Positions 8,260 to 26,129 are shown, counted from the first letter of the stretch. The stretch: 64,000 nucleotides of DNA from a plasmid (NZ_CP064874.1), one strand, 5' to 3'. Made by a program: numbers and translations. The notes: generated by a model not told the origin, from the sequence alone.

Positions 8260-8329
8260 CTAGGCCGTGTTGATCATGAGGGTTCACTCACCCACCGAGG
8301 AGCGGAACCTCTTGATCAACACGCCCTAG
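8260..8329. mobile_element. 70-bp MITE-like element made of IS5-family terminal inverted repeats
   Basis: CTAGGCCGTGTTGATCATGAGG (8260-8281), a 26-bp spacer, then CCTCTTGATCAACACGCCCTAG (8308-8329). The second IR is the exact reverse complement of the IR at 2891-2912. Confidence 0.55.
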
Positions 8330-9835
8330 GAAGCTGCTGACGTAAAAGCGTGTGTTCGTTCGAGTAGAGGCATCGGCGGCAACTGCTTCGGTCAAGAGAG
8401 CCGAATCGACTCTACGCTGAACGGTTGCTACCCAAAGGTATACGTCCAGACTCAGAGATGGGTTGAAGACCGCTGCATAGTCTGCCTCGTTGTTGAGCAA
8501 TGTCGACGGGCGTGCACGCGCATCATCAGGTCGGCTCAGTCCAATCGCCATCACGGCCTGCCCGAGTGTGGCGATGCTGATGATCTTGTCGGCTGGCTTT
8601 CCGGCGTTCTTGTAGAAGTTCTTTCGGCGGTCGTAGTACCAGCCCTTCGCGGCGAAGTGCGACTCGATCTGGCGGTGGAGATCCTCGGTCGCATGCAGCG
8701 ACGCGTCTGGAACCTTCGTTTGACTGTTGGTCGCTCGGATCACGTCGTCACGAGTGGCCTCGTCGAGGGTCTTGATTACTCTGACCTGGACAGATCGCCG
8801 CTTGTGGCGCTCAAGGTCGACGCCGGTCGCGGTAAGGACATCGTGGATGGCATGCGAGGTCTGCATGCCATTGACGATCTGCACACCCGACAGAGTGAAG
8901 GTCTTCTCCCCGCCGATATTCACCCCTGAACACAGGATCGTTACCCCGTTGTTTAGCCACCAGAAGTCTCGCTCATCGTCGGCTTCGAGAGTTGCCTGCA
9001 TCTGCCTGTTCACGGTGACTGCGCCCTGGAAGTCGCGAACGTTCCAATCGAACAAATGACCGCGGAGTGCCCCCGACTCGTCAGAAAGGAATCGGAAGTA
9101 CTCGGGTAGCGAGACGAGACCGGCATAGGAGTCGCCTTCCGAGATGTAGTCCCGGAACCGGAGCTGGAGGTCATACTCAGGCGTGGCGCTCGCCATCGCC
9201 CACAGCTCCCTCGCGCCCACGAGGCGCGCCTCGACATCTGACCCAATGACCAGCGAGGAGAGCGCCGCGCGGGTGTCGGCGACCTTCTGTGTAACACCCG
9301 CTGACGCGCTCGTGGTGTCGCCGCGTGACACATATGCGAACGTGATCGAGATGCGTGGCGACCGGATACTGAGCAACGTCCACGCCCTGGTAAACAAGCG
9401 AACACGCGCGATGACATCGGCCGAATAGATCCCAGCCAGCTGCTCGTCGGTGAAGTTCAGGTCGAGCAGCTTCTTCGTGCTCGCGTTCACCTTGTCGAAT
9501 GCGTCCTCGCCGAATCCCTCCGAGCGCTTCGCCTGGATGAGCCACAGGGAAATCTCGGCGCCCTTTCTCACTTCGCTCGGCTTGAAGCCGTCCTCAAACA
9601 CGTCAGAGTCCTCGCTGAGGAGGCGGCCGTCGAGGAAGGTGTAGACGGCGTCAAGCCCGCCGTCCAGTCCTCCGCCGATCCTGCCCGCTTCGATCTCCTC
9701 GTCGCTGAGGTTCTGCCCGCTAAGGACCGTCGCAGCAGCGAACACTTCGAACGCAACGTCATCGGGCAGGGGCGTATCTCGACTGTCCTGCGCCGCCTTG
9801 AGGAACTGATCGACAAGGACAACCTCATTGCTCAT
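8288..9835 (-). CDS. AIPR-family protein (abortive-infection phage-resistance-like); last 14 codons and the stop are supplied by the MITE
   Basis: 515 aa. Carries AIPR hallmarks (…DFWWLNNGVTILCSGV…IVNGMQTSHAIHDVL…). The C-terminal residues LGRVDQEVPLLGG* are encoded by MITE sequence. Confidence 0.7.
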   Translation of the reverse strand: MSNEVVLVDQFLKAAQDSRDTPLPDDVAFEVFAAATVLSGQNLSDEEIEAGRIGGGLDGGLDAVYTFLDGRLLSEDSDVFEDGFKPSEVRKGAEISLWLIQAKRSEGFGEDAFDKVNASTKKLLDLNFTDEQLAGIYSADVIARVRLFTRAWTLLSIRSPRISITFAYVSRGDTTSASAGVTQKVADTRAALSSLVIGSDVEARLVGARELWAMASATPEYDLQLRFRDYISEGDSYAGLVSLPEYFRFLSDESGALRGHLFDWNVRDFQGAVTVNRQMQATLEADDERDFWWLNNGVTILCSGVNIGGEKTFTLSGVQIVNGMQTSHAIHDVLTATGVDLERHKRRSVQVRVIKTLDEATRDDVIRATNSQTKVPDASLHATEDLHRQIESHFAAKGWYYDRRKNFYKNAGKPADKIISIATLGQAVMAIGLSRPDDARARPSTLLNNEADYAAVFNPSLSLDVYLWVATVQRRVDSALLTEAVAADASTRTNTRFYVSSFLGRVDQEVPLLGG

Positions 9836-9895
9836 CGAAGATTCCCGCTTCCTGGTCGCGCTCGACCATCGACACGTTCAGCCAACCTAGCTGTT

Positions 9896-10858
9896 TCACG
9901 ACTCGTCTCTATTCACAGTGTCGGGGCCGAACCACTCGGGCGGGACGCCATCTGCCCACTGCTCCAGGGCCGAGTCGTCGATCGCGTAGTAGCCAGCAAC
10001 AAGGTGGCACGCCTTGTAGAAGATCAGGCAAGCGAGACGCACCTGCCAGGCCACCACGCCACGACCGACGGTCCAGGGTCGACGGGCTACACCGTCAATC
10101 TCTATCGGGATCGACTGCTTGTCGACGGTGAGCAGGGACGGGTGCGAGTAGTCCGAGAGCGAGTCGTAGAGAACCTTTGTCTTTCCCTCGAAGCACAGGT
10201 CTGCGAACGATGCAGCCGCGCCACCAAGGCTCGCCATCCCCTGTCCGGCCACAGTCCAGGTCTCGATCAGATCGGGAGAGGACAGGTCGATCTCAACGGC
10301 GGTCTCGCCGAAGATTGCCCTGGCCTCAGCGATCTTGGTGTCGCGGAGCACCTTCGCACGATTCCCGTGCCCTCTATCGAACTTGCCTGCTGTATACCGC
10401 TCTCGCCGTAGCGAGGAGATCGCCTCCAGGTATAGGCGGGCGACCCGCACCTCGCCGGCTTCCACCTGGACGCGCGGATCGAGCAGCCATGCGGCTCGTC
10501 CCGCGAACTCGAGTTCCGCGCGCACGAGCGGCCATAGCGCCACCGCAACTCGCCGCGCACGGAGCAGCGCCTCGACGGCGAGAAGCTGCTGGCTGATTGC
10601 ATCCACGTACAGCCCGGCGCGCTGACCTGCACCATGTTCGACATTAGCTGGAGCGTCCGGCTTCGCTTCACGAAACTGCCGGGCCTCGGTCGCCGCTGGC
10701 GAGCCGTTGGCGGGGAGTACCGCGAGTCCGCGCGCCATCTCCATCCACGCGAGCACAAGGTGGTGGCAGAGGTCGGCGTACGTATCCAACTCCGCGGCCA
10801 ACTCATCCGGCACGTCAACCCACGCGGTATCATTCTCTATCTCGGGTCCCTGGCTCAT
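9896..10858 (-). CDS. hypothetical protein (operon member between the DUF499 and AIPR genes)
   Basis: 320 aa with good GC3. Its start lies 7 bp after the DUF499 stop. No family was recognised. Confidence 0.55.
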   Translation of the reverse strand: MSQGPEIENDTAWVDVPDELAAELDTYADLCHHLVLAWMEMARGLAVLPANGSPAATEARQFREAKPDAPANVEHGAGQRAGLYVDAISQQLLAVEALLRARRVAVALWPLVRAELEFAGRAAWLLDPRVQVEAGEVRVARLYLEAISSLRRERYTAGKFDRGHGNRAKVLRDTKIAEARAIFGETAVEIDLSSPDLIETWTVAGQGMASLGGAAASFADLCFEGKTKVLYDSLSDYSHPSLLTVDKQSIPIEIDGVARRPWTVGRGVVAWQVRLACLIFYKACHLVAGYYAIDDSALEQWADGVPPEWFGPDTVNRDES

Positions 10859-10864
10859 CGACCG

Positions 10865-13800
10865 TCAGTCCATCGACCAGTCGTCGTCGCCGAAGCCGAG
10901 GGTCTTGAGGTTCTCGCGGATCGCCGAGCGCTGGTCGTCGCTGAGCTTGGCGAGCTGCTCGGACTCGATGTCGATCGAGACGCGCACCGGGACGCCGGCC
11001 GTGACGAAGTGCGACACGATCTCCTCGTAGATCTGCCCGGCGTCGCGCACGACGCGGTTCACGGTGAGGTTCTTCGTCGCGTGGAATCGCGTTGGCGCGG
11101 TGGCCGCTGCACGCCCGCCCCCCGAACTCGTCGTCGTTCCCGGCGCTCCTGAATCCGTGCCGGGCGACGACGTTCCCGATCCGCCCGTCGCAGTGCCCGT
11201 CCCGCCTTGCTCGCCTTCGCCACTCTGACCCTCGGTGACCCTAGTGTCAGCTTCGATCTGATGGGTCGCGATAACAGGGTCGACGAGCAGCCCTCCTTGC
11301 CGTACAGCAGCAGGAGCCTTCATGGTCAGGCCGCTGAATCTGCCGTCCTCGTACGAGTCGGCGTAGGCGAAGCCGTCGAGTTCCACGACGAGGGCGTCGT
11401 CAAGGTGCCACACGGCGTCGATGACGACCTTCGGCTGCACGACCTTCGGCATGTAGACGTACTGGCTGAAGTACCCGACCAAGACGTCGAGTGGCACGTA
11501 CGGCTTCTCGCGCCACAGGTTCAGCCGGTTGATCTGCATACGGAGAAGTGACGGCGAGAAAGTGCGAACGACGAACTCGCCTGCGTCGGCCTTCTTGGTC
11601 ACGCGCGCAGCGAGTGTGCCGTCGCCGTTCATTAGAATCGACTCCAGCTCGATCTCGGCGGCGCCGGGCTCCTGAGTCGGAACGAGAATCCAGCGGTAGG
11701 CCTCGCGGATCGCGTCCTTCACCGTCTGCTTCTGCTGGGCAACGCGTGACTCGGCGACTTTGATGTTGTGCTGGTCGAGGTTCAGCGAATCGCGGTTCTC
11801 GAGTATGTACTCCCATGCCATCCGCTGGCGCACGGCATTGAGCAGGATGTCGATGCGGTCGACCTCGGGAGCGAGGAAGACGAGAGAGTTCTTGTGGATG
11901 CGCGCGTTGGTGCCGCGCTTCGTCAGGAACTCGATCGCCGCGTCCTCAGCCACGGAGCGCCCGCGCTTCGAGAAGGGACGGTCGGGTCCGAAGATCACGA
12001 GACCGATGCCCGGGTCGTCCTCGACGTCGATGCTGCCGTGCGGCAATCGATGCACGCGCTCGAACAGGCCCTTATCGGTCTCCTGGCGGACGACCTGCGC
12101 CAGCTCGTCGAACACCTGCTCCTCGTGGTAGGAGTCGGCGCGCTCCTGCACGATCTGCGCGACGGTCTGCTGCAGCGACAGCCAGTACCGGTCCTGGTCC
12201 CGGTTCATGTACTTGCCGAGGTCGCCGAGTCGTCGCAAACCGTCAGCGACGTGCGCGGGGTTGTCGCCCGGGTAGGTCGAACCGAGCACTACGCGCTTCT
12301 GTTCGATACCGCGGATGGTCGCGGCGCTGCCGTCGCGATTGCGGAGGTTGGCCATCGGAGCGGTGCCGAGGAACACACAACGAGCGGCGCGTTTGGTCGC
12401 CATGGACCGGCCGAGGATCTTGATGTCGCTGTCCACGATGTTGGCCGTCGAGGTCTCGCCTGCGACGTCAGCGTCCACGATCGGTTTCCAGGAGTCGTCG
12501 AGATGGTTGGCCAACTCGTCGAAGACCTTCGCGTTGTCGAGCGGGATCGAAGCGGGGAGGATCATCGGTGATCGGTCACCGCTCGTCCAGAGGGCGTAGA
12601 CGACCGTCGCCATGAGGCGCAGTACGCCGCGGGTGCGCTGGAAGCGCTCCAGGGTCGACCAGTCCTTGTAGAGCCGATCGAACAGCTCCGGGTGGATCGG
12701 GTAGGCGGTGCGCATCGATGCGCGGTAGCCGGGCTGCATGACCTCGCTTGGCACATCCGAGCCGTAGCGCACGTAGTGGTCCATGTACTTGTGAACGACG
12801 AGGTCGCGCGCGGCGTCTTGTTCTCGTCCGAACGGCTTGAAGATGCGCCGCCTGACGATCTCGAACGACTCCTCGATCGTCGCCGGCTGCCAGGCAGACT
12901 CCAGACGGTGGATCACGGAGCGGAGGTGTCGCAATGCCTCCAGGCCCGCGGTGCCGCCAACCTCGTGCTCGTTCTCGGTCGGCGTCTCGGCTCCCTGCAT
13001 GTCGCGGACGACGTCGGACGCCGGGAGCGAGACTACGAGGAGCGCGGTCGGGACGGCCTTCACTGCCTCGGTCAGCGACTGCACGAAGGTCATGTGGCCG
13101 TCGAACGTCCCGGCGGGCGCGACCTTCTCACGTGACCAGAGCTGGCGCAGATACGCTACCCACTCGTCGATGAGGATGATGCACGGCCCGTACTTCTCGA
13201 AGAGGTCGGCTAACGCGGTGGTCGTTGGTGGCACCGACTGCTCGTCGTACCGCTTCAGGAGTTCGTACCCGTCGACGCCCCCGAGCTGGTACGCCAGCTC
13301 GCCCCACAGTGTGTTGACGGTGATGCCCTCGGGCTTTGGCATCCCCAGGATTGAGAGGTCGTTGCCGACAAGGACCGCACGATTGACGCTGGCGGGAAGC
13401 TCCGCGACGCCAATGCCGTCGAGCAGCTCCCGCATCCCCAGCAGCTGCTCAGCGGGTACTCCTGCTGCTGCGTGGTAGACGGCCAGCAGCGAGTGCGTCT
13501 TGCCGCCACCGAAGGTCGTCATCAGGTCGATGACCGGTTCTCCACCTCCGCCACTGAGGCGCTTGATCGCCTGCTCTAGAAGGTAGCGCAGGCCGCGAGT
13601 GAGGTAGGTGCGACCGAAGAACTCCACAGGGTCGCCGTACTCGGGGCCGGCCACGCCCTGGTGCACCTGACGCAGGTCTGCGGCGAACTGGGCCAACTCG
13701 AACGTGCCGCGGGCGACATCGTCGTGAGGTTCAATGACGTCGCGCCATGCGGGGAGACCAGTCGAGTCGACTTGCACTGAGAGGGCCCGCTCCTGGGCGC

Positions 13801-14251
13801 GCTGGAGCCGCTTCTGGTCCTCCTCGAACATGAGTCGGCGGAACTCTCGACGCATCTCATCGGCCTTGTCCGCGTGCTGAGCAGCACCGATCGACCGGAG
13901 GATGTGCTCGCCGTCCATGAGCACCCGCTCGGTGCGCTCCGACGAGATTCGCTCTCCGTGCGCCCACTCCTTGCGGGCATCCCACAGTGCAGAGATCACT
14001 CGTTTGTCCTCGAAAGTGAGCTGCTCCTTGAAGACCTGATGCCACTGCTTGTCGAAAACCCAGAACAGGTACGCGGGGTCTGTGGGACTCGGTGAGCCGT
14101 CACGCCCGGTGAGGCCAGCCGTTCGCCCGACCTCGGCGGCCCAGCTGCCGCCGTGCTTGGCTTCAAGGAGCCCGATCATCCACGGGCCGAGCCCTTCAAC
14201 CACGAGGTCGAGTACCCGTCCAACGCGTTCCTTGTTTGAAAGTGCCGCCAT
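10865..14251 (-). CDS. DUF499 P-loop ATPase with an N-terminal Swt1-like HEPN region
   Basis: Walker A TTFGGGKTHSLLAVYH; protein is larger than 1100 aa. The start MAALSNKERVGRVLD (ATG at 14251) overlaps the MTase stop (TGAcATG). The ORF-track N-terminal extension was not used. Confidence 0.85.
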   Translation of the reverse strand: MAALSNKERVGRVLDLVVEGLGPWMIGLLEAKHGGSWAAEVGRTAGLTGRDGSPSPTDPAYLFWVFDKQWHQVFKEQLTFEDKRVISALWDARKEWAHGERISSERTERVLMDGEHILRSIGAAQHADKADEMRREFRRLMFEEDQKRLQRAQERALSVQVDSTGLPAWRDVIEPHDDVARGTFELAQFAADLRQVHQGVAGPEYGDPVEFFGRTYLTRGLRYLLEQAIKRLSGGGGEPVIDLMTTFGGGKTHSLLAVYHAAAGVPAEQLLGMRELLDGIGVAELPASVNRAVLVGNDLSILGMPKPEGITVNTLWGELAYQLGGVDGYELLKRYDEQSVPPTTTALADLFEKYGPCIILIDEWVAYLRQLWSREKVAPAGTFDGHMTFVQSLTEAVKAVPTALLVVSLPASDVVRDMQGAETPTENEHEVGGTAGLEALRHLRSVIHRLESAWQPATIEESFEIVRRRIFKPFGREQDAARDLVVHKYMDHYVRYGSDVPSEVMQPGYRASMRTAYPIHPELFDRLYKDWSTLERFQRTRGVLRLMATVVYALWTSGDRSPMILPASIPLDNAKVFDELANHLDDSWKPIVDADVAGETSTANIVDSDIKILGRSMATKRAARCVFLGTAPMANLRNRDGSAATIRGIEQKRVVLGSTYPGDNPAHVADGLRRLGDLGKYMNRDQDRYWLSLQQTVAQIVQERADSYHEEQVFDELAQVVRQETDKGLFERVHRLPHGSIDVEDDPGIGLVIFGPDRPFSKRGRSVAEDAAIEFLTKRGTNARIHKNSLVFLAPEVDRIDILLNAVRQRMAWEYILENRDSLNLDQHNIKVAESRVAQQKQTVKDAIREAYRWILVPTQEPGAAEIELESILMNGDGTLAARVTKKADAGEFVVRTFSPSLLRMQINRLNLWREKPYVPLDVLVGYFSQYVYMPKVVQPKVVIDAVWHLDDALVVELDGFAYADSYEDGRFSGLTMKAPAAVRQGGLLVDPVIATHQIEADTRVTEGQSGEGEQGGTGTATGGSGTSSPGTDSGAPGTTTSSGGGRAAATAPTRFHATKNLTVNRVVRDAGQIYEEIVSHFVTAGVPVRVSIDIESEQLAKLSDDQRSAIRENLKTLGFGDDDWSMD

Positions 14252-14252
14252 G

Positions 14253-16927
14253 TCAGAAGAGCCCTTCCGCAGTCGTGCGTCCGTCCCCGCTGAGCCGAAC
14301 AAGTTCAGCCCAGGAGTTGATCAGCGCGTTGTACCGTTCCTGATCTGTGGTTCGACCTTTGCGTGCAGCAATATCGTGCAATCGGTAGGCCAGCGCCATC
14401 GCCGGGTCGTGTAGGTCGGACAACCGAGCCATCAACTTGGCCGAGGCGAGTTCGCCGCCACCGTCGATCAGGCGGTCGGCAAGGTGATGCACAGCCTCCC
14501 ACGCCGTCGGTCGCGAATCGTTCGCCGGACTCCACTGCCTGTCCAAGCCACCATTTCCGAGAAGTTGCACCTTATTGGCCTGGCTTGTTGCCACTTGAGC
14601 ACGAACGACGTCATCAACACTTATTCCCAGAGGGCGCACAGCCTTATCAGCCTCGCCGAATGCTGCCGGCGCCCAACCGTGGCTCTCCCACCAACGAACT
14701 GCGAACCGCGATTCCGGATCGAGATCGCCTTCCTGCTCGTCGAGGACCTCGGCGAGTGCTTGATTGATCATCCGAAGCGCTTGGTCCACCTGAACGCGCT
14801 GGCCTGCTTGGTCAAGGACCGCCCTGTAGCGGGAGAAGATCTGCATTCCCGGGCCCATGGCGGCCTGAGCGAGGTCGACGGGGAGTATCGATGCCGCCTG
14901 AAGGTCGCGGACGGCGGTCGACAGCTCACGCCGTAGGGCACGGTTGAAATCGCTGAGCGAGCACGTGAGTGATTCGACACCCCTGGGCCGGCAGACCATG
15001 ACGATGTATGAAGCCACGGCGTTGGTGCCCGCGGAGACCATACGTGCTTCTGTAGTTCCGCGGATCGGCCATGAACCAGTGATCTCGAGGTCGGCGGCGA
15101 TCATGGCGGAGAGGATTGCCGACCACCGAGTCTCCTCGCCCTTTCCCGCCTTTTGCTCTTTTGAGGCATAGACCACAAGCATCGGAAGGCCCGGTGCCGA
15201 CGACCTTTCGAGGTTCCCGAAGGTCTCGGTAAACCCCTGAACGAAGTAGTTCGTCGCTTCCTGCTTGCTGTTGCCATGCCGCGAAGCGACTGCAGTTAGC
15301 TCGCCTGCCTTCGGGGCGGCAACAGTCGAGTAGAGGTCGGGGTGCACCTTTCGTAGCGCTCTCCGATGCCAAACATAGAAGAAGTCCGAGATATCCGCGT
15401 ACCCAATCGCGTCGAAGTACGGCGGATCCGTGGCGACAAGTCCCGGTTGGTCAAGTGTTGCGACTCGAGCGTCCGCCCTGCGAACGGCGGCGGGCGCGCC
15501 GCCGAGCGCTGCGTACGGCAACGCTCGGAGCATGGTCTTGACCATACCGAGCCAATCCCCGACCGATCCTCCAAACACGTTGACCTCAGGAAAATCCCAG
15601 GTCATCGGTAGGTTGTGTGTTGAAAGCGCTGCTTCAGCCTTTGCCTGCGGTTGAACGCGCCAAATGGCCATTGACGAGGAGAACTGCGCCATCTTGCCGA
15701 CAGCGAGACCGAGCAGCGATGTGACTGCCGTCGCCCACTCGTGGTCACCGCCGTCCGCCAGGATCCGGTCGTAAACCCCGGCAACCAGGTCCGCGAATGT
15801 CGCGAGCGTCAACTCCTGGCGGGGTTCATCAGCGAGCTCCACGTTTCCATCCCATAGAGGCCGACGCGGATGCTCTGCCCCTCGGTGTTGATCGGTACGT
15901 CGTCCGACTCGACCCGTGACGCGATCGAGGCGATCGCATCCATCTCTTCCGCCAGCGGTTCCCGATACACACGCCTCTTGCCGCGCATCGTTACGACCGC
16001 TGTCATCCGAAGGCCTAGTCGCCCTGCCTTGCCTTCTCCGCGGAGATAAGGTCCGTCGAGGGTCGAACCGCAGTTAGCGCATGAGAAGACGCCATCGCCG
16101 ATCTTCAGCGAGCTAGCAGGGCCCCCACCCGTCTGGCCGGAGACCACCTTGAGCTGGATGGAGCCAGATTCAGCGCGAATGTCGTACCAGGCCAGGTCCC
16201 CGCCCTTCTTGGAGATCCAGTTCGACGTGAGTAGCGGTGTCGTCGCCCCGCAGGCGGGGCTCGGACATGCCGCCGTGCGTGCCCATAGCCATGCGATCGG
16301 TGTTTCGCCCGCCGGCCACGAGTAGGCCGAGCCAAGGCGCTCGAGAGCCCGCTGCTCAATCTCCTTCGCGTAGAACGTCACATCATCAACTAGACCTTGC
16401 AGCGGATGTCCCGTTCCAAGGCTAAAGAGTCCATCGCTGACCGCCTCAGCAATGCCCTGCCGCCCGGCCATCGCCGGAACTATAGAGGCAATTGTTCGTG
16501 AGATGAGCACCGGAACCGGATTGAGATCGGAGCCGTACGCCGGGAGGCCGAGTCGCTGTGCCTCTATGAGCGTGGAGCCGCCTCCACAGAAAGGATCCAG
16601 AACGGGTGGGACGCCGTTCGGGAACTGTCGCGCGAGCACGCGGCGCGCCTCAGACAGGTCGGTGTCGCCAGGGACGTCTGCGCCGCTGCTCACCATCCGT
16701 TTGATCAGATCCAAGAGATACACCCGCTGATTGTCGTCTTCCGGATCATCGACCAGTGCGGCGAAGAGAAGAGCGCGCCACGCGGGAAGAGGCATAGGCG
16801 CGAACCACTTATGCAGGTTGCGGATAGTCCCCGTCTTGCGGTCCTTGTCCGCCTTGCAAGCCGCGTTGATCTCGTCGAGGGGCAGCGCGACCTCGATCAG
16901 CTTCTTCTTTCGGGCTGTCTCGGTCAC
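14253..16927 (-). pseudogene. DUF1156-family N6-adenine DNA methyltransferase, split into two frames (15809..16927 and 14253..15842): frameshift or sequencing error
   Basis: The N-terminal ORF begins KKLIEVALPLDEINAACKADKDRKTGTIRNLHKWFAPMP (DUF1156). The C-terminal ORF carries DPPY (…LVATDPPYFDAIGYADISDFFYVW…). The two frames overlap by 34 bp, giving about 900 aa combined. Confidence 0.8.
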
Positions 16928-19900
16928 TGCTGGCTCATCTCCGTTGCGTCGTTCCAGAAGGGCTCCCAGTCGTATTCGACGCGCGCCGCGCGAGGATCGA
17001 TGGGCTGATCTATGGGGTGCCTCAGGTAGCGCACTGTCGTCGTGTCATCCTCCGCTACCTGGACGAGCGCGAGCACCGAGTGGTCGGCCTTGTTCAGCGC
17101 AGTGACCGCTTCCTGCCGGGTGAGCACGAAAGTGCGGCCGCCGACGACGCGGCCCTTCACCTCGATGAAGTCGAGACTCCGCCCGGTGTCGGACTCGATG
17201 TCGTAGCCGGGGTTGTTGTGGTGCATCTCTGTCGGATCGTGCCCGAGCGCGTGCTCGACTCGGAGAACGGCATCGACGGCCAGACGCTCCACCCGCGTTG
17301 TCTCCCTGGCACGGTCAGCTGCGCCTTCCGGGTCAGTCTGAGCATCCAGCCATCCCTGCGTGACGACTAGACAAGCGCCGGTCACCCGAGGCGGGCGAAC
17401 CGAGATGTCACGTTCTTGCTCAAGTTCTCGTAGCCGTCGGTCGAGTCGACGGGCCAGGGCCTCGGCCCGTTCCTGCATTTGAGATGCCGGGAGGCGGGTC
17501 TTCCTGCCCGCTCGCTCCTGTTCGCTCAGCTCGAAGGCACGGCGGTCCCAATAGTTGATCTCGCGAGTAAGGCGCTCGCGAACGAGGCGCTCGGTCTTGT
17601 CAACGCGCTCGATGGTGCGTCGGCTGACTTCGTCAGCGTGCTGCCGAGCGATCGTGACCGATGCCTCGCGAATGACGCGACGGTCTAGATCGGCTGCCTG
17701 TGCCCAAGGCTCACCGAGCAGCGGTTGGCTTGCCTCCACTTCCTCGTCAGTGGGGACCTCGAAGTTCGGGATCGGCGAGCCAGTGAGAGGCGTGATGGTT
17801 CCGTCTTCGTCGATACGGGCGTACTGGGCGCGACGCGACACGACACGAGGCTGCCCATCCTGCGCGATGCGTCCGTCGGTGACGTCGTGTTCGAGGAGGC
17901 TGACAACGTAAGGCTGAGTCGTCAGGTCAGAGCGGTCGACGAGGACCGCTCCGCGACGGAGCGCGTCGATGTAGCGGTCGGAGACGACGCTCATCGTGGC
18001 CGACATCAGCGGGTGGCCCGGGTGTAGGAGCGTCGCGAGGCGGTTGTTGCCGTCTACTCGGACGTACTTCGGGTCGAAGGTGACGCGGTAGTACTCGTCG
18101 ACCACGGGCTGGCCGTAGCCGGTAATGCGGTCGCGCTCCTTGATCTCGCCAGGCACTCGCTTGATCTCGAAGCGGTGGCTCTCGCGCATGCGGAGCTGCC
18201 CGCCCACGTCAGCGAACGCACGGTGAAAGAACGCCTCGACGTGGTGGGGCTGGAGGCGGGCCGCCTCGGCTCGCTCCATCTCACGTCTCATGTCGTCGAC
18301 CTCAGTGTCGCTCATCGCGCCGGGCACAAGCTGGTTCGCCTTCAGCAGCTCGGGGATGCCGTCGGCGATCTTGGGGTCGACGACCTCGGTGAGGTAGCGC
18401 TCGCGCTCCGGCCTGTTTGCCTCGCGGATAGCGGCGATCATCAGGTCGCGCAGTGCGTTGCCCTGGAAGAGCTGACCGAGGACGTCGTAAACGCGCCCGC
18501 CGAGCGTGGCGCGCTGCTCCTCGAGCTTCTCCAGCAGCCGCGTGTACACATCGCCCTCGCGGGTGTCATCGGCGACGAGCGACCACATGAAGCACGTGTT
18601 GGGCTGACCAATACGGTGCACCCGCCCGAAGCGCTGTTCGATGCGGTTGGGGTTCCACGGCAGGTCGTAGTTGATCAGCAGGTGGGCGTTCTTATGGAGG
18701 TTCACGCCTTCGCCCGCAGCATCGGTGGCGATGAGGAACACACAACGCTCGTTCTGCTCGAAAGTCTCCTTCGCCTTCTTGCGGTCTTCCCGCTTGGTAC
18801 CTCCGTGGATGGTGATCACGGCGTCGTCTCGGCCGAGGTGCTGAGTCAGACGCATAACCAGGTCGTCGAGGGTGTCCTTGTGCTCGGTGAAGATGATCAC
18901 CTTGCGACGCGCACCGGTGTCATCGCGCATCTCGTCGGTGTCGTCCAAGGTGTCGCGCAGGGCATCCCACTTGGCGTAGGTGGGTGACGATTTCACAGCA
19001 GACGACTTCACGAGGAGCCGATCGACGACGAGGATCTCGGTCTCGAGTTCCTCCGGCGTGCGTGCGGTCGTGGCTCCAGCGATCGCCTGGTCTTCGAGCG
19101 CCTCGCGTTCCTCGTCGGTGAGGTCTTCCAGGTCGTCCCAGTCCTCGGGCACATCGGGGGTGTCCGACTTCACTGCGGCGTACATGCGCGCTTCGCGCAG
19201 CTCGGACTCAAGGCGTGCCTTGCGGCGTTCGAGGGAGCGGTGGATCGCCGCGGGTGATGAAGCAAGGCGACGCTGGAGCGTCGTGAGCGCGAACCCGACG
19301 GCAGTCCGACGACGATTGTCACCCTCGATCGCATCGGCGCGGTTCATCTCGTCACGGACATAGTCGGTGACGGCGACGTAGAGGTCCTTCTCGGCCTGGG
19401 ACAGCTCGTACTTGACCGTGAACGCGAAACGCTCGGGGAACAGTCGCGTGCCCTCGAACGTACGAAGCTCCTCCTTGACCAGACGGCGCATGAGATCCGA
19501 GACGTCGACCTTGCGGCTTCCCTCCCGGGCGACGCCCTCGAAGCGGTCGGAGTCGAGCAGCGCCATGAAGAGCTGGAACTGCTCCTCTTTCCCGGAGTGG
19601 GGCGTCGCGGTCATCATCAACAGATTGCGCGCGTGTTTCCCCAGCTCCTCGGCCATCTGGTAACGCTTGGTCTTCTTGACCTCGTTGCCCCAGACCGTGG
19701 CCGACATCTTGTGGGCTTCGTCGAAGATGATCAGGTCCCAGTCGACCTCACGGGCCTTGTCGAGGATGCCTTCGCTGTTCCGCGCGAGGACGTCGAGTCG
19801 TGCTAGCCAGAGCCCGCCTCGTGCGAAGGGGTTGCCCTCGTGAAGGATCTTGTCGCGAGTGAGGCTCTCGAACTCCAGGTCGAACTTCTCCCGCATCTCC

Positions 19901-20412
19901 TCGTCCCACTGATCGACGAGCACCCCTGGCGAGACGACCATGACATTCGCCGCATCGCCACGGAGCAGGAGTTCCTTGATGAGCAGGCCCGCCATGACCG
20001 TCTTGCCGGCACCCGGATCGTCGGCCAGAACGTAGCGCAGCGGCTGCTTGTGGAGCATGATCTCGTAGACCGCGCGCAGCTGATGCGGCAGCGGCTGCAC
20101 GTCGCTGGTGCCGAGGGCGGCCTGCGGATCGAAGAGGTACGCGAGCTTCATCCGACGCGCCTCAGCGGCCAGGAGGAACGAGTTGGGGTCCGCATCGAAG
20201 CTGAATACTTGGCCGGCCACGACCTCGCGCACCTGCGAGATCGCGTTGGCGAAGACGATCTTCTCGCCAAGCCCGGTGTCGGTACGATATGCCACGTTCG
20301 CCGAGTCGTCAGTGAGGCGCTCGACGGCAACGATCTTCACCGGATCAGGCCCTGCGAGGCCGGTCACGGTCGCGCCAACACGGACGAGATCAAACATCGA
20401 TGAGGTCGTCAC
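16924..20412 (-). CDS. SNF2/DEAD-like helicase with C-terminal DUF3883
   Basis: Contains LADDPGAGKTVMAG (motif I), DEAHK (motif II), and helicase C motifs (…QRFGRVHRIGQ…). The C-terminus …GYDIESDTGRSLDFIEVKGR… is DUF3883-like. It overlaps the MTase start by 4 bp. Confidence 0.85.
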   Translation of the reverse strand: MTTSSMFDLVRVGATVTGLAGPDPVKIVAVERLTDDSANVAYRTDTGLGEKIVFANAISQVREVVAGQVFSFDADPNSFLLAAEARRMKLAYLFDPQAALGTSDVQPLPHQLRAVYEIMLHKQPLRYVLADDPGAGKTVMAGLLIKELLLRGDAANVMVVSPGVLVDQWDEEMREKFDLEFESLTRDKILHEGNPFARGGLWLARLDVLARNSEGILDKAREVDWDLIIFDEAHKMSATVWGNEVKKTKRYQMAEELGKHARNLLMMTATPHSGKEEQFQLFMALLDSDRFEGVAREGSRKVDVSDLMRRLVKEELRTFEGTRLFPERFAFTVKYELSQAEKDLYVAVTDYVRDEMNRADAIEGDNRRRTAVGFALTTLQRRLASSPAAIHRSLERRKARLESELREARMYAAVKSDTPDVPEDWDDLEDLTDEEREALEDQAIAGATTARTPEELETEILVVDRLLVKSSAVKSSPTYAKWDALRDTLDDTDEMRDDTGARRKVIIFTEHKDTLDDLVMRLTQHLGRDDAVITIHGGTKREDRKKAKETFEQNERCVFLIATDAAGEGVNLHKNAHLLINYDLPWNPNRIEQRFGRVHRIGQPNTCFMWSLVADDTREGDVYTRLLEKLEEQRATLGGRVYDVLGQLFQGNALRDLMIAAIREANRPERERYLTEVVDPKIADGIPELLKANQLVPGAMSDTEVDDMRREMERAEAARLQPHHVEAFFHRAFADVGGQLRMRESHRFEIKRVPGEIKERDRITGYGQPVVDEYYRVTFDPKYVRVDGNNRLATLLHPGHPLMSATMSVVSDRYIDALRRGAVLVDRSDLTTQPYVVSLLEHDVTDGRIAQDGQPRVVSRRAQYARIDEDGTITPLTGSPIPNFEVPTDEEVEASQPLLGEPWAQAADLDRRVIREASVTIARQHADEVSRRTIERVDKTERLVRERLTREINYWDRRAFELSEQERAGRKTRLPASQMQERAEALARRLDRRLRELEQERDISVRPPRVTGACLVVTQGWLDAQTDPEGAADRARETTRVERLAVDAVLRVEHALGHDPTEMHHNNPGYDIESDTGRSLDFIEVKGRVVGGRTFVLTRQEAVTALNKADHSVLALVQVAEDDTTTVRYLRHPIDQPIDPRAARVEYDWEPFWNDATEMSQQ

Positions 20413-20486
20413 GACTCTCGTTCACTCCCTCGGTTGGCAAGTTGATCAGGATACGTTGGGCCGGCGACATTGCGGCCGATCGGGGG

Positions 20487-20669
20487 CTAGTCTGTGGCGC
20501 CGGCATCCCCTCGACGCACCCAGTCGTCGACCTCGCTCGCCTGGAACTTCCACAGGCGCCCGACCTTGTGCGCCGGCATCCCCTTGTCGGAGATCCAGGC
20601 ATAAATCGTGTCTTTCGTCACACCCAAGTGCTCAGCGATGTCGTCGGCAGAGAGCCATGGTTCGGACAT
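20487..20669 (-). CDS. small HTH DNA-binding protein (excisionase/AlpA/MerR-like)
   Basis: MSEPWLSADDIAEHLGVTKDTIYAWISDKGMPAHKVGRLWKF…, 60 aa. Confidence 0.6.
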   Translation of the reverse strand: MSEPWLSADDIAEHLGVTKDTIYAWISDKGMPAHKVGRLWKFQASEVDDWVRRGDAGATD

Positions 20670-20717
20670 TCACGCCCCTATGCAGATTGAGCCGGAAGTT
20701 TCCGGGTATGACCGAGC

Positions 20718-21540
20718 CTACCCCGAGCGCTCGGTATCCGAGCCATCGCCATTCGCCCTTGTCGTGCCCTCGCCGCCAATCACCTCGAGAAGCTCCTCGA
20801 GCTGTAGGTGAAGGACGTCGTAGGCCTGCATGTAGAACATGTGATCCATGGCTGACGGCGGTGTGTCGTCGAGGTCCGCGAGTACCTCTCGAGCCTCGCG
20901 GATCGCTGTCTGCAGCCGGGTCTCGATTCCGGGCAGGCTCTGGATCCAGGCGTCGATCACGCTGAACGGGATCGGTGCGAAGCCGTAGGCGTCGACGCCG
21001 ACATGGAACTGGTGGCCGTTGGGGCCGTGGTCGCGGGCATGCGTGTGCCCGTGGAGAAGCGGGATGCCGTCGTCCCAGCGCGGGCGATGCGACGTGTGTC
21101 GATCCTGTTCCTGGCTGTCACCGCCGTACGGGTAGTGCGAGGCAATGATCCTGTACCCGTGGCGCGTCCCTTCGATCACCTCTGGGAGGATCTCCCACCC
21201 CGCCGCTTCGTACATGGGCGTGAATCTCTCGATCGCCCGTTTCGACTGGGTTGCGGGCGAGACGCGATCGTGGTTCCCAGGCACGAGTAGCTTGCGCCCG
21301 TTGAGCCGCGCGGTGAGCCCGATCGATTCCTCGATCGGACCGAGTGCTACGTCACCAAGGTGCAGGACGACGCTGCCTGGTGAGACCGTGTCGTTCCACC
21401 GGCGCACAAGGTCGTCGTTCATCTCGTCGACCGTGGAGTATGGCCGACCGGCCAGCTCGCTGATGCGGGCGTGGCTGAAGTGGGTGTCGGAGGTGACGAA
21501 GTCGACCTGGTCGAAGTCAAACCACGGATATTCACGCATC
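20718..21540 (-). CDS. metallophosphoesterase (calcineurin-like)
   Basis: Contains D-x-H…GDxxD…GNH(D/E) motifs (FVTSDTHFSH, LHLGDVALG, VPGNHDR, HGHTH). The start is taken at MREYPWFDF (21540). Confidence 0.7.
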
Positions 21541-21945
21541 GCCGACTGAAGCTCCGGACTCAGTTTCGTTGAGGCCGAACGCCCGCCGGAGCGTGCGCTC
21601 CGCGTCGCCTGCGGGCTCGGGAGGCAGCTGGGCGATCTCGCTCTGCAGCTGCTCCCGCGCATCTTCGATCAGTCCCCGGTTCTCGTCGCGCCACTCCCGA
21701 ACGCCAGAGTCGCGCAGAAGCCCATGCCCTGCACTGCCGTCGTATCCGAGTAGTAGCTCTGTGCCGAGGGCGGACGCCATGACGCGTGCATCGACGGTGC
21801 GGCTCGCGCGCAGGATGGACAGCGTCGTTGCGGCATCCGCGCCCGACACGTCGACGCGGTAGTTCTGGATGTCGCCGTGCTCGGTTGTCTCGGTGCCGAC
21901 ATGAGTGACGACGATGGTGCGATCGCCGATGATGATCTCGCGCAT
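21532..21945 (-). CDS. hypothetical protein
   Basis: Start taken at MREIIIGDRTIVV (21945). Overlaps the next gene by 9 bp. Confidence 0.4.
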   Translation of the reverse strand: MREIIIGDRTIVVTHVGTETTEHGDIQNYRVDVSGADAATTLSILRASRTVDARVMASALGTELLLGYDGSAGHGLLRDSGVREWRDENRGLIEDAREQLQSEIAQLPPEPAGDAERTLRRAFGLNETESGASVGDA

Positions 21946-21976
21946 GCGACCTCCTGACATCGAGCCGGCCAAGCTA

Positions 21977-22359
21977 TCAGCAGTTGACGCCGGCGCGGCC
22001 GTGGATACGCCCTGGCCGAACGACGTCGTCGTGTCCCGGAATGTAGGCAATCGCGCCGAGTCGGGACCAGTAGCTGATCAGCCAACGGTGCAAGAGATCG
22101 GTCTGCTCGCGGCGTTCGAGCAAGGTGCGGTCCGGGTCTTCGATGATGTCGTCCCAATCGGGGCTCGAGAACACGGCATCGATCAGCTCGGCGCACGATG
22201 GGCCGGTACCGTGTCGATCCCACCACGCGAGAGTCAGTCGCCCTGCTTGGGTTGCGTTCGTGGAGCCCCCGGGTTCTTCGATGGTCCCGATGAGTGCGCT
22301 GAGGTAGGGATCTTCGGCGGCCAGGACGAAGGAATCTTGGTTCAGTTCCGCCGCGCTCA
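21977..22359 (-). CDS. hypothetical protein
   Basis: Starts MSAAELNQDSFVLAAEDPYLSAL. IS copy A sits 25 bp upstream of this start. Confidence 0.4.
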
Positions 22360-22432
22360 TACAGTGCAGAATGCCATACGGATTAGGGCGTGTCTGACAA
22401 AGGTTGAGGGGATCGGTTGAGACGCTGGAGCG

Positions 22433-22828
22433 GTGACGCGGTTTCGGTTGCTTACGGATGCTCAGTGGTCTCTGATCGATGGGATGTTGCCGAGGCCGAC
22501 GGGTCGCCCGGGTCGGAAGTTCTCGGACGCGCGGACGATGCTGGAAGGGATCATTTACCGGTATCGGTGCGGGATCGCGTGGCGCGATCTTCCTGCAGTG
22601 TTCGGCCCGTGGCAGACCGTGTGGACCTGGCATCGCAGGCTCGCGACCGAAGGCACCTGGGACTCGATCGTGCAGTCGCTGATCGCGCAGGCCGACGCCG
22701 AGGGGCTGGTGGACTGGTCGGTATCGGTGGATTCGACGATCACGCGGGCGCATCAGCACGCGACGAACACGAGTCGCCCCACAGGGGGCTGTATCGAATT
22801 ACACGAATCCGGGCGTCGAGCCGCCTGA
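22433..22828 (+). CDS. IS427-group transposase OrfA
   Basis: MTRFRLLTDAQWSLIDGMLPRPTGRPGRKFSDARTMLEGIIYRYRCGIAWRDLP… (DUF4096-type). Confidence 0.8.
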   Translation: MTRFRLLTDAQWSLIDGMLPRPTGRPGRKFSDARTMLEGIIYRYRCGIAWRDLPAVFGPWQTVWTWHRRLATEGTWDSIVQSLIAQADAEGLVDWSVSVDSTITRAHQHATNTSRPTGGCIELHESGRRAA

Positions 22829-22910
22829 TCATGCTATCGGCCGCTCCCGGGGCGGCCTGTCGACGAAGATCCACCAGCTCGTTGACGGGAAGGGGCTGCC
22901 GCTGGTCACG

Positions 22911-23327
22911 GTGATCACCCCCGGACAGGCCGGTGATTCGCCGATGCTGCTGCCCTTGCTGGATCAGCTTCGCGTGGGTCGCCCCGTCGGTCGCCCTCGC
23001 ACCCGCCCGGACGCGGTCCGGGGCGACAAGGCGTACTCGTCCCGCGCGATCCGGTCACGCTTGCGGGGGCGTGGGATCAAAGCCGTGATCCCCGAGCCCC
23101 GCGACCAGCAGGGGCACCGGAAGCGTCGCGGTTCACGAGGCGGAAGGCCTGTCGGGCTCGACACCGACGACTACAAGAACCGCAACGTGATCGAACGCCG
23201 GTTCTGCCACGCCAAGCAATGGCGAGGCCTCGCGACCCGCTACGACAAACACGCGATCACCTACCGCGCCGCCGTCCTCATCCACGCCGCCATCGCCTGG
23301 ACCAGAACGCTGTCAGACGCACCCTAG
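22911..23327 (+). CDS. IS427-group transposase OrfB (DDE; probably expressed as OrfAB by frameshifting)
   Basis: …VRGDKAYSSRAIRSRLRGRGIKAVIPEP…NRNVIERRFCHAKQWRGLATRYDK…. Confidence 0.75.
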   Translation: MITPGQAGDSPMLLPLLDQLRVGRPVGRPRTRPDAVRGDKAYSSRAIRSRLRGRGIKAVIPEPRDQQGHRKRRGSRGGRPVGLDTDDYKNRNVIERRFCHAKQWRGLATRYDKHAITYRAAVLIHAAIAWTRTLSDAP

Positions 23328-23439
23328 CCGGCTGGCCCTGAGTCCGATGAGACGTCGCACAACCGAAGGGATACGAGGCGGTCGCCCTGTCATGGTTCAC
23401 TCGGCGGCGCGCCGGGCGCCGCCTGGCGGAGCCGCCCTC

Positions 23440-25995
23440 TCAGCGGACGGGTTCGTCGGCGTGCCGGACGTCGTCCGACGACGCATCCCCGGCTTCCGTC
23501 GCCGCCCCGTGGATCGGATGGCTTCGCTCGAGCGCGGCGCCCTCGACGTCGACGTTCGGGAGGATCCGATCGAGCCAGCGCGGCAGCCACCACGCCTTCT
23601 CGCCGAGCAGGTGCATGAGCGCGGGGATCAGCAACAGCCGCACCACGAACGCATCGAACAGCACGCCGATCGCGAGGCCGAAGCCGAGCGGTCGCACGAG
23701 CGCCAGGTGCGAGAAGATGAACCCGCCGAACACCGACACCATGATGATGGCCGCCGCGGTGACCACCGCTCGCCCGTTCCGTAGCCCGGCGACAACCGCC
23801 GTCCGGGCCGGCACCCCGTGCACGAACGCCTCTCGCATTCCGGTCACCAGGAAGAGCTGGTAATCCATCGCGAGACCGAACAGCACGCCGATGAGGATGA
23901 TCGGTGCGAAGTTCAGCACCGGTCCGGGGGTGTGGACGCCGAACACCGGCCCGAGCCATCCCCACTGGTAGATCGCCACCACGGCTCCGAGTGCGGCGAA
24001 CAGCGACAGCACGAACCCGGCTGTCGCGATCAGCGGCACGAGGATCGAGCGGAACACCAGCACGAGGATGAGCAGCGACAGCCCCACGACCAGCGCGAGG
24101 TACACCGGCAGCACGCCGGCGAGTTTCTCGGAGATGTCGATGTTGCCGCTGGCCTGGCCTGCCACCCCGAGCTCGATGTCTCCGATCGGCGAGAGCTCGC
24201 GCAGGTCGTGCACGAGCTGCTCGGTCGATTCGGTGGACGGTCCGCCGATCGGCACGACCTGGAAGGCGAGGAAGTCGCGGTCCTCGGACACTCCGACCGG
24301 CGCGACCGCGACCACGCCGCCCTGCTCGAGCAGCTGACCGGCTAGGTCGGCCTGTACCGCGACGACGTCGTCCTCATCGATCGGGGCCGGCAGCGCGGCG
24401 GTGACGAGCAGCGGTCCGTTCTGGCCGGCTCCGAATGCCTCGGCCGCGGACGTGTAGGCCCGGTACTGGCTGGAGTCGACGGGCTCGGATGACCCGTCGG
24501 GCATGCCGAGCCGCATGGAGAGCGCCGGGATCGCGATGATGAGCAGCGCGCCGACGGCGAGTGCGGCGCGCGCGAACGCACGCGAGGTCTTCATGGGCTT
24601 CAGCTCGGGGCGAGCGTGCGATTCGTGGCCGATCTGGCCGCGAGCCCGCCGATTGACGATCCGGAGGCCGATGATCCCGAGCATCGCAGGCGTCAGGGTC
24701 ACCGACAGGAGTACCGCGACCAGCACGCATCCGGCCGCGACCGTTCCCATGACGCCGACGAAGGGGATGCCGGTCACGTTCAGGGCGAGCAGTGCGACGA
24801 GCACCGTCGAGCCTGCGAAGACCACGGCGTTGCCCGACGTGCCGTTCGCGAGGGCGATGGATTCGTGCACGTCGACACCGGCGAGCACTTGCCGTCGATG
24901 GCGGTTGATGATGAACAGCGCGTAGTCGATGCCCACGGCCAGTCCGAGCATCATGCCGAGCACGGGGGTGGCCGACGACATGTCCACGACGCCCGAGAAG
25001 GCCAGCGACCCGGCGACGCCGACGCCGACGCCGACGAGTGATGAGACGATCGGCAGCAGCGCCGGCAGCAGCGCGCGGAACATGATGACGAGCGTGAGCA
25101 GCGCGAGCGCGACGCCGACGATCTCGCCGATGCCGATGAGTCCCTCGACCGCGGTGGCGATCGTCGCCGAGTAGTAGTCGACCTGCACCCCGTCGATTTC
25201 GGCCTGGTCGAGTTCGTCCGAGACCGCTTCCACGACCTCGGACGGGACGGAGAACACGTCGTCCTCGAACATCACCACGCCGATCGCAGTGGCACCGTCC
25301 TCGGACACGGTTCGGATCTCCGAGGCGGCATCCATGAGCACCCGCGCGTCATCGAGCTGAGCGCGCTGCTCGGCGAGTTCGCCGGCACCGGCGTCCAGCT
25401 CGCCGCGGCGATCCTCGAGCTGAGCGGCACCGGCATCGAGCTCGGCCTGCTGCGCGGCGAACTGCGCCGCTGCGAGCGCGTACGTCCCCGCGGACTTCGC
25501 TTCAGCGATGGCCGCGTCGAGTTGCGCCTGAGCGGCCTCGAGCTGGGTTCGCGCAGCCTCGATCTGAGTGGAGCCCTCGTCGAGCTGGCGCTGCGCTTCG
25601 TCGAGCTGGGCCGCGCCGGCTTCGAGCTGCTGCTCCTGTTCGGCGCGATCGGACGTCGCGACGAAGGGGTCGACCACATCGGCCACGCCGTCGATTCCGT
25701 CGATCTCGGCCAACATCGCGGAGATATCCCCCTGCTGGGCCTCGGTGAAGTCGGATCCGTCCTCCGTCCGGAACACGATGGTGCCGGTTCCGCCCCCGAG
25801 TTCCCCCAGTTCTTCGGTGAGCCGCTCGGTGACGCGCTCGGTCTCGGTGCCCGGGATGCTCATGCTCGACGTCAGCGTGCCGCCGAAGGAGACGAAGGCT
25901 CCGACAGCCAGGGCGAGTGCGGCGATCCAACCGGCGACCACGGCCCACGGTCGGCGCGCGGCGAATCGTCCGACACGGTAGAGGAGTTCTGCCAC
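23440..25995 (-). CDS. MMPL-family RND-type membrane transporter
   Basis: 851 aa with 12 predicted TM regions in two blocks. A coiled-coil-rich periplasmic insert is present. Typical MMPL segments are LGMMLGLAVGIDYALFIINRHRRQ and LFGLAMDYQLFLVTGMRE. Confidence 0.85.
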   Translation of the reverse strand: MAELLYRVGRFAARRPWAVVAGWIAALALAVGAFVSFGGTLTSSMSIPGTETERVTERLTEELGELGGGTGTIVFRTEDGSDFTEAQQGDISAMLAEIDGIDGVADVVDPFVATSDRAEQEQQLEAGAAQLDEAQRQLDEGSTQIEAARTQLEAAQAQLDAAIAEAKSAGTYALAAAQFAAQQAELDAGAAQLEDRRGELDAGAGELAEQRAQLDDARVLMDAASEIRTVSEDGATAIGVVMFEDDVFSVPSEVVEAVSDELDQAEIDGVQVDYYSATIATAVEGLIGIGEIVGVALALLTLVIMFRALLPALLPIVSSLVGVGVGVAGSLAFSGVVDMSSATPVLGMMLGLAVGIDYALFIINRHRRQVLAGVDVHESIALANGTSGNAVVFAGSTVLVALLALNVTGIPFVGVMGTVAAGCVLVAVLLSVTLTPAMLGIIGLRIVNRRARGQIGHESHARPELKPMKTSRAFARAALAVGALLIIAIPALSMRLGMPDGSSEPVDSSQYRAYTSAAEAFGAGQNGPLLVTAALPAPIDEDDVVAVQADLAGQLLEQGGVVAVAPVGVSEDRDFLAFQVVPIGGPSTESTEQLVHDLRELSPIGDIELGVAGQASGNIDISEKLAGVLPVYLALVVGLSLLILVLVFRSILVPLIATAGFVLSLFAALGAVVAIYQWGWLGPVFGVHTPGPVLNFAPIILIGVLFGLAMDYQLFLVTGMREAFVHGVPARTAVVAGLRNGRAVVTAAAIIMVSVFGGFIFSHLALVRPLGFGLAIGVLFDAFVVRLLLIPALMHLLGEKAWWLPRWLDRILPNVDVEGAALERSHPIHGAATEAGDASSDDVRHADEPVR

Positions 25996-26129
25996 GCGAG
26001 AGGCCTTTCATGAGGAGACGAGACGAGGGCGCACCTACGAGCCACCACCGAGGATAGCCGACATTTGTCGGAAATCGGAGCGGCTGGGTTCTGCGTGGCG
26101 TCTCCCCATCCCGCTGGCACAATCGACGC

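Follow-up and report, generated by a model that had tools for sequence, protein, structure and literature searches.

A decaying HEPN-fused Hma (type-1 BREX-related) defence locus with p320 as a probable add-on module, carried on a tyrosine-recombinase element

Introduction

Hma systems, anti-phage operons encoding a helicase, a methylase and an ATPase, were defined in 2021 by Payne, with 1,638 instances in 26 phyla (PMC8565338), and re-examined by Payne in 2024 as a frequent host for embedded defence genes (bioRxiv 10.1101/2024.01.29.577857). A 2026 survey renames Hma the 'type-1 BREX-related' system (BREX, bacteriophage exclusion), counts 2446 taxa with a HEPN-fused ATPase in 1370 of these, and credits its first sighting to a HEPN survey of 2013 (PMC12839542). 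According to the mechanism proposed there, the methylase would mark self DNA, the DUF499 ATPase would scan and recognise DNA, the helicase-nuclease would restrict and the HEPN domain would act as a suicide back-up (PMC12839542). The HmaA nickase domain has been shown by experiment to be needed for defence against T4 (PMC11232893). The core trio is already catalogued and partly tested, and its HEPN fusion is common, being present in more than half of the taxa. Here we describe a copy of this trio on the minus strand of plasmid NZ_CP064874.1, where it is followed by the gene for a protein of 320 amino acids (aa), p320. The window is the whole stretch of 64,000 nucleotides (nt) of this plasmid that was analysed and all positions are those of the window; L001-L039 are labels for comparison loci bearing p320 homologues or copies of the carrier element.

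Type-1 BREX (BrxA, BrxB, BrxC, PglX, PglZ and BrxL) has a homologous ATPase, methylase and helicase logic, whereas the window locus is without PglZ, BrxL, BrxA and BrxB and has a methylase of the DUF1156 rather than the PglX type. With Hma the window locus shares the same three proteins, their order and their strand, together with the HEPN fusion on HmaC and the nuclease fusion on HmaA. The window clade differs from Hma by a conserved fourth gene, p320, which lies outside the published definition, and the window copy itself by a frameshifted hmaB. The reading put forward here, to which we assign a probability of about 80%, is that the locus encodes a HEPN-fused Hma (type-1 BREX-related) system against phages, which is decaying, is carried on a recombinase element and is equipped with p320 as an add-on module. 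An earlier note on this DNA was aware of no mechanistic description of the trio, a statement superseded by an experimental paper, two surveys by comparative genomics and dedicated PADLOC models.

Results

Open reading frame (ORF) calls between 8288 and 22400 recovered all minus-strand ORFs where the earlier note had placed them, and the three core genes are contiguous on this one strand. The first, hmaA (16924..20412), encodes a Snf2-family helicase with a C-terminal PD-(D/E)xK (NOV_C/DUF3883) nuclease and looks intact; it matched the PADLOC HmaA model over its full length (E=0, 1296 bits) and the Pfam domains SNF2-rel_dom, Helicase_C and NOV_C, with motifs GKT136, DEAH231 and GYD..IEVK (1069-1086) preserved. 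The DUF1156 N6-adenine methylase gene hmaB (14253..16927) is present as two ORFs (15809-16927 and 14253-15842) rather than in one intact reading frame, both halves being matched by the PADLOC HmaB model (2e-140 and 6e-63) and the former by Pfam DUF1156. The third, hmaC (10865..14251), encodes an AAA+ (ORC/Cdc6-like) DUF499 ATPase with an N-terminal Swt1-type HEPN domain (PADLOC HmaC 1e-267, Pfam HEPN_Swt1 2.5e-22 and DUF499 1e-32) and also looks intact, retaining the HEPN R-x4-H motif RKEWAH, the Walker A motif GGGKT and the Walker B motif ILIDE; its ORF is open over 10865-14302 and the ATG at 14251 gives a protein of 1128 aa. Since the PADLOC models match over full length and the Pfam domains agree, the trio is assigned to Hma. 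The domain assignments made previously (AIPR, HEPN_Swt1 with DUF499, DUF1156, SNF2 with NOV_C/DUF3883, HTH_17 and a weak Metallophos_2) were reproduced. A type-1 BREX system was rejected, as no PglZ or BrxL domain was found in any ORF of the region with Pfam, PADLOC or NCBIfam, and so was DISARM (defence island system associated with restriction-modification), for which the helicase scores on DrmD models but more weakly than on HmaA, with no DUF1998 (DrmB) protein in the region.

The gene junctions were read directly. A GTGA at 16924-16927 is shared by the hmaA stop and the hmaB start, as expected from the 4-bp overlap reported before; the hmaB stop and hmaC start form TGA-C-ATG, with the 1-nt spacer that had been described; and 6 nt separate the hmaC stop from the p320 ORF, in agreement with the tight coupling proposed for the 320-aa ORF behind the DUF499 gene. 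In the most likely mode of action of an intact system, drawn from the literature, HmaB would methylate adenine in a host-specific motif, the ORC/Cdc6-like AAA+ ATPase HmaC would assemble on DNA and discriminate it, and HmaA, as a Snf2 translocase with a PD-(D/E)xK nickase, would damage incoming unmethylated DNA, whilst the HEPN RNase on HmaC would be the suicide effector of last resort. In this scheme p320 would be a fourth gene co-translated behind hmaC, followed by an independent AbiU/AIPR abortive-infection gene.

The copy in the window is damaged. An identical p320 protein is encoded on 18 other contigs, and from 8326 to at least 20857 the window DNA is 99.9 % identical to those copies with a single gap, namely the loss of one C from a C5 run (TGAACCCCCGCC) at approximately 15820. 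This loss splits hmaB between motif I (LDPFCGGGS) and motif IV (DPPY), whereas in at least seven near-identical copies hmaB is one gene of 891 aa; the single methylase gene described earlier is consequently two ORFs, with one C missing relative to every near-identical copy, a set of about ten at 99.9 % identity. As hmaB is frameshifted, modification by HmaB is probably off in the window copy, and if target recognition runs via HmaB, as it does via PglX in BREX, restriction would be off as well. The Hma copy in the window is probably non-functional. In a sister lineage (JGI metagenome 3300045612) an independent insertion sequence (IS) lies in hmaB at a point equivalent to window 16014-16017 (L019:5584-7375 and L010:3292-5424), with different DNA on the far side of the break in L019 and in L010. 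The gene has therefore been inactivated twice independently in close relatives, and the hmaA and hmaC frames are open with their motifs intact; together these observations hint that loss of HmaB is tolerated rather than lethal, which would fit a BREX-like dependence of restriction on the methylase.

The gene following hmaC (9896..10858, minus strand) encodes p320, an all-helical protein of a family remotely like DUF5677. The window protein gave no match in Pfam, PADLOC or NCBIfam. A word-indexed search returned 29 relatives, all of approximately 300 aa and unnamed, and an exhaustive profile search returned 389 cluster representatives, 60 of them below 1e-30, which puts the family at 389 clusters or more; look-ups of the clusters yielded no names, and a second word-indexed search with a wide alignment added nothing. 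Residues R113, E117, W124, R141 and H239 are invariant among 57 diverse members. The AlphaFold (AF2) model is all-helical, with a predicted local distance difference test score (pLDDT) of 87.5 and a predicted template modelling score (pTM) of 0.87. Pfam DUF5677 was matched by 16 of the 57 members at 20-22 bits, below the gathering threshold of 27.1 bits, over nearly the whole profile and in the region that holds the invariant residues (approximately residues 80-240). The window protein itself gives no match to this domain, and p320, which has additional helices on either side, is about double the length of the domain. The PADLOC candidate PDC-S52 was matched weakly by two of the 57 members, with no other PADLOC match. 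Searches of the p320 profile against PDB sequences and PHROGs gave nothing, and a tblastn search of 72,556 plasmid records gave no homologue. The family has no entry in PADLOC-DB v2, and the 2026 BREX survey (PMC12839542) mentions it neither in its main text nor in its supplements. The description of the 320-aa protein as family-less, checked by structure prediction and fold search, accordingly held, with no fold match and a DUF5677 similarity that stays sub-threshold.

Two further proposals for p320 were discarded. A HEPN identity was rejected as R113, R141 and H239 are about 100 residues apart, no Arg lies 4-6 residues before H239 and no HEPN protein was among the fold matches. N-terminal extensions in some members, considered as domain fusions, look like over-called starts.

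The genomic neighbourhood of p320 is recurrent. A homologue lies directly after the HEPN-HmaC gene in seven independent lineages (the window clade, L001/L022 from Cellulosimicrobium cellulans, L005, L006/7, L008, L029 and L038) and immediately behind the brxL gene of type-1 BREX in two (L003/4, where the genes overlap by 4 nt, and L039), confirming the link between the trio and the 320-aa protein that had been noticed in the window and extending it to BREX; in L002 a homologue lies near a BREX operon. A small HTH_17 gene likewise heads operons of both kinds in these actinobacteria. Conserved-pattern scans for p320 loci returned six loci from genomes and eight from metagenomes, numbers that count only loci in which the patterns are well conserved. 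Stand-alone homologues also occur, two of them immediately after TrwC relaxase genes (L026 and L034) and others adjoining ApeA-HEPN, PIN, caspase-like, HepT/MNT, DUF4238 or ParB/methylase genes. Between loci in which HmaA and HmaC are 83-93 % identical, p320 is 45-65 % identical, the target-recognition region of HmaB 25-50 % and the C-terminal 180 residues of HmaC 50-70 %. Judged from these comparisons, p320 diverges as fast as the recognition modules of the systems that it accompanies.

In nine independent loci p320 lies 1-7 nt behind the preceding gene or overlaps it by 4 nt, a closeness that would be expected if p320 were a genuine subunit, the fourth, in this Hma clade and in some BREX systems, binding the ATPase/methylase complex as an adaptor, specificity or regulatory subunit. 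That p320 diverges at the pace of the target-recognition region of HmaB and the C-terminus of HmaC points the same way, as does the gene being intact in every copy, decayed ones included. However, homologues at 38-59 % identity are found without Hma or BREX within 10 kb, most Hma systems in the literature consist of three genes, and one and the same family stands behind two different terminal partners, HmaC and BrxL. We regard a true subunit as rather unlikely.

The stand-alone homologues, in defence-island or mobile-element settings, would be accommodated if p320 were a self-contained single-gene defence system parked 3' of large defence operons. Both Hma and BREX are on record as sites where other defence genes land, and the weak PDC-S52 match in two members agrees with such a role. 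The position of p320 is nevertheless more regular than this would lead one to expect, the gene always lying right after the last core gene, never between core genes and never beyond another inserted system, and the one tested DUF5677 protein is not among the reported active candidates. A single-gene system is possible, if doubtful. The relaxase neighbours suggest yet another role, in which p320 would serve mobile elements in anti-defence or establishment, for example by shielding incoming DNA, and would have been picked up secondarily by defence operons: a homologue is the first gene after the TrwC relaxase in L026 and L034, and the L002 homologue is on the same stretch as a relaxase. The absence of homologues from the plasmid records searched by tblastn, from PHROGs and from BFVD speaks against this, and an anti-defence factor would hardly be expected to be co-translated with BrxL or HmaC, so that we hold such a role to be improbable.

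Because homologues stand alone and p320 diverges like the recognition regions, we favour p320 as an add-on conflict module, perhaps a sensor or back-up effector that acts alongside BREX-type ATPase/methylase machines or reports on them, rather than as a core enzymatic subunit of them. In its widest form this preferred reading takes p320 as a conflict-interface module that would have been appended to BREX-type operons and that may be a subunit, a stand-alone defence gene or a sensor or back-up effector.

Beyond p320 lies the AIPR/AbiU-type abortive-infection gene (8288..9835, minus strand), which is 3'-truncated. The 60-nt spacer between the p320 ORF and this gene agrees with the distance given in the earlier note; the translational coupling claimed with it does not hold, the gap being too wide. 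Nor is the gene complete: the ORF is of 515 aa against 586 aa in relatives, homology to which stops at 8326, the edge of a miniature inverted-repeat transposable element (MITE), and in place of the last approximately 84 codons there are 13 foreign ones leading into the MITE. The PADLOC AbiU model was matched at 1.5e-168 over profile positions 1-471 of 537, short of full length. The MITE itself is palindromic, 70 bp long (8260..8329), with 30-nt arms and CTAG at each end, and the sequence beyond it has no match to relatives; it marks a deletion that removed the 3' end of the AIPR gene together with the original element end, and is not itself an element end. Its terminal-repeat motif GGsCGTGTTGAyCA also occurs at 2894, 52462 and 52640 (five matches in the window against 0.5 expected), suggesting that this MITE/IS family is active or recently active in this genome. 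To the left of the MITE, 6521-8273 holds transposon remnants, namely an ISL3-family transposase on the minus strand (6521-7840) and, on the plus strand, a 110-aa HTH_29/HTH_28 fragment (7941-8273).

Among loci with both Hma and p320, AIPR follows p320 only in the near-identical window clade. Elsewhere the next gene belongs to a cyclic-oligonucleotide-based anti-phage signalling system (CBASS; L006-8), to a pyrimidine cyclase system for anti-phage resistance (Pycsar; L038) or to DUF3644/EC042_2821 (L039), is unrelated (L005), or is missing. Since the gene after p320 varies between lineages, AIPR is a defence-island neighbour and not part of the operon. The occupants of this slot include type II CBASS (SMODS, ThiF and JAB) with DUF6602 and NERD genes at L006:11050-15592 and L008:8915-13465, and a Pycsar-like PycTM cassette with NERD at L038:10970-14081. 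The slot downstream of p320 looks like a hotspot of defence-gene exchange. AbiU1/AIPR genes beside restriction-modification (RM) operons have been noted since 2008 and 2012 (PMC2292703, PMC3506569), and the window has the same classical pairing; here the gene is truncated, limited to one lineage and not conserved with Hma and p320 elsewhere. Of the coupling of the trio to a 320-aa protein and an AIPR protein, which had not been recognised before, the former is therefore a recurrent link, whilst the latter is a pairing known since 2008, lineage-specific and truncated.

The operon is the cargo of an approximately 20.5-kb tyrosine-recombinase element, present in the window in two parts (8326-22387 and 27662-33908) and colinear with the longer intact elements of L017, L018, L020 and L021, so that the earlier placement of the defence genes as cargo of a recombinase-bearing element was correct. 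The gene order of the element is tyrosine recombinase (495 aa), 606 aa, 701 aa, 139 aa, HTH_3, 138 aa, 137 aa, phosphoesterase, HTH_17, hmaA, hmaB, hmaC, p320 and AIPR. The recombinase half (27662..33908, minus strand) is 99.9 % identical to L017, L020 and L021; it carries an HTH_3 gene (27710-28021, minus strand) with a 139-aa gene, and three overlapping minus-strand recombination genes encoding a 701-aa protein that has an H-x-x-R box and faintly matches an integrase (28493-30598), a 606-aa protein (30595-32415) and the 495-aa tyrosine recombinase with Phage_integrase and SAM_1 domains (32412-33899). No Rfam families and no tRNAs were found in or near the carrier element.

Between the two parts lies a 5.3-kb composite transposon (22388..27659), in which two inverted IS5/IS427-type copies that are 100 % identical (22388-23326 and 26721-27659) flank a gene for an MMPL transporter (23440-25995, minus strand) and one for a TetR regulator (26130-26696, plus strand). 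Its insertion point is a TA immediately downstream of the 138-aa gene's start codon, and relatives are colinear across this point with an overlap of 2-4 bp. The same insertion is present in the metagenomic sister strain L019. The MITE at 8260 and the IS427-group copy that had been recorded at the two edges of the defence genes are both real, and IS-derived sequences at both edges had been the grounds for regarding the nine genes as an IS-bounded composite mobile unit. The terminal repeats of the left MITE (GGCCGTGTTGATCA) and of the right IS (GGGCGTGTCTGACA) differ, however, and no matching target duplication is present; the right IS belongs to the separate composite transposon, and in relatives the same genes continue uninterrupted on both sides. 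These colinear relatives rule out an IS-bracketed island for practical purposes. The MITE and the IS are secondary events, later damage inside the larger tyrosine-recombinase element, and not borders of a mobile unit.

The ends of the carrier element lie in coding sequence for methylase motif I. In the window, the recombinase end adjoins an MmeI-family (type IIL) restriction-methylase gene (33907..35592, plus strand), which is 5'-truncated, starts inside motif I (..ACGCGNFLV) and matches Pfam MmeI_Mtase from profile position 36, MmeI_TRD and MmeI_C. The recombinase end (...GTACACATAAC) meets three different methylase genes in the middle of motif I: ACGCGNFLV in the MmeI-family gene of the window, ACGSGNFLV in an Eco57I-type methylase (L020:1030-1110) and FTGTGTFIV in a type ISP enzyme (L017:2860-2940). 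The AIPR end (...GCGCATAA, then ACGC) abuts (D/E)-P-A codons, which belong to the corresponding N-terminal half of the ISP gene (L009), to the N-termini of small methylases with a divergent HTH_3 gene (L011, L012 and L014) and to a 547-aa N-terminal fragment adjoining a PLD-SNF2 gene (L010). The N-terminal half of the MmeI-like target gene was not found left of the MITE (window 6521-8273) and appears to have been deleted. Since both element ends abut motif-I codons in several genes, the carrier inserts, always facing the same way, within the stretch that encodes motif I, (D/E)PACGxG, in at least four different genes for N6-adenine RM methylases.

No description of methylase motif-I targeting by an element of this kind was found in the literature searched. 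We assume that the closest parallels are elements of the Tn554/Tn916 type, which presumably share tandem recombinase genes at one end, an orientation- and site-specific insertion and a few bases that travel with the element; the constant bases at the AIPR end (ACGC) look to us like the coupling sequences that we take to be typical of such elements. In contrast to these, the carrier targets the motif-I coding sequence of diverse N6-adenine methylase genes and encodes 606-aa and 701-aa proteins without confident family assignment.

The remaining genes between the composite transposon and hmaA are all on the minus strand. A 60-aa HTH_17 (excisionase/MerR-like) protein (20487..20669; Pfam HTH_17 5e-15) is encoded about 75 nt upstream of hmaA, a position kept in all near-identical copies, and is probably a regulator or an excisionase. 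An HTH_17 gene at L002:12784-12987 heads a type-1 BREX operon, overlapping brxA, as the counterpart of window 20487-20669 heading Hma (Microbacterium); the small HTH_17 gene may be a regulator common to BREX-type systems of actinobacteria. Next to it is the gene for a 273-aa calcineurin-like phosphoesterase (20718..21539), whose ORF (20718-21662) matched Pfam Metallophos_2 weakly and below threshold (1e-4). The exact protein is encoded on 11 contigs and a Metallophos gene occupies the same position in L005; the phosphoesterase is part of the carrier-element backbone. Two further backbone genes (21532..22393), identified from gene calls in the intact L017 and L018, encode proteins of 137 aa (21532-21945) and 138 aa (21977-22393), for which family searches gave no match. 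The start region of the 138-aa gene was lost to the IS insertion, alignment with relatives breaking at 22387. Of the upstream genes listed previously, the HTH protein and, weakly, the phosphoesterase were recovered, whereas the ORF listed as the second 'unknown' (21977-22759) is an artefact, in which the 138-aa gene runs on into IS sequence.

Discussion

The window locus is best read as a decaying HEPN-fused Hma system with p320 as an add-on module, and several points weigh against this reading. The sole family link of p320 is the sub-threshold DUF5677 match seen in 16 of 57 relatives, and the one DUF5677 protein tested in an Enterococcus defence screen was not among the active candidates (PMC12632615). 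Fold searches, BFVD included, returned no solved or viral structural relative of p320. About half of the p320 contexts inspected are neither BREX nor Hma, so that to say that p320 'works with BREX-type machines' may be too strong. The homopolymer frameshift in hmaB could be a sequencing error, in which case the methylase would be intact, and what is said here of the Hma mechanism beyond the HmaA nickase is a proposal drawn from the literature.

Two aspects of the locus stand out. The first is p320, a recurrent orphan-fold appendage at the tail of Hma and BREX operons, and the second is the methylase-motif homing of the carrier element. A tentative proposal, which we put forward as unlikely in its full form, would join the two: the DUF5677-like p320 family would be an accessory common to BREX and Hma and functionally coupled to the BrxC/DUF499 ATPase and methylase machinery, for instance by sensing when phage anti-defence proteins inhibit it and setting off a second-line response, and the carrier would be a transposon of defence islands whose homing site is the (D/E)PACGxG motif-I coding sequence of resident RM methylases, so that one defence is knocked out as another is delivered.

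If loss of the methylase is tolerated, as it seems to be, this would fit a scheme like that of BREX, with restriction also depending on the methylase. An insertion of the carrier breaks up a restriction gene already in place and brings in Hma, p320 and AbiU, and would thus be a way for defence islands to replace each other. An accessory shared by Hma and BREX would be a concrete new component for BREX-type systems, whose restriction step is still unclear.

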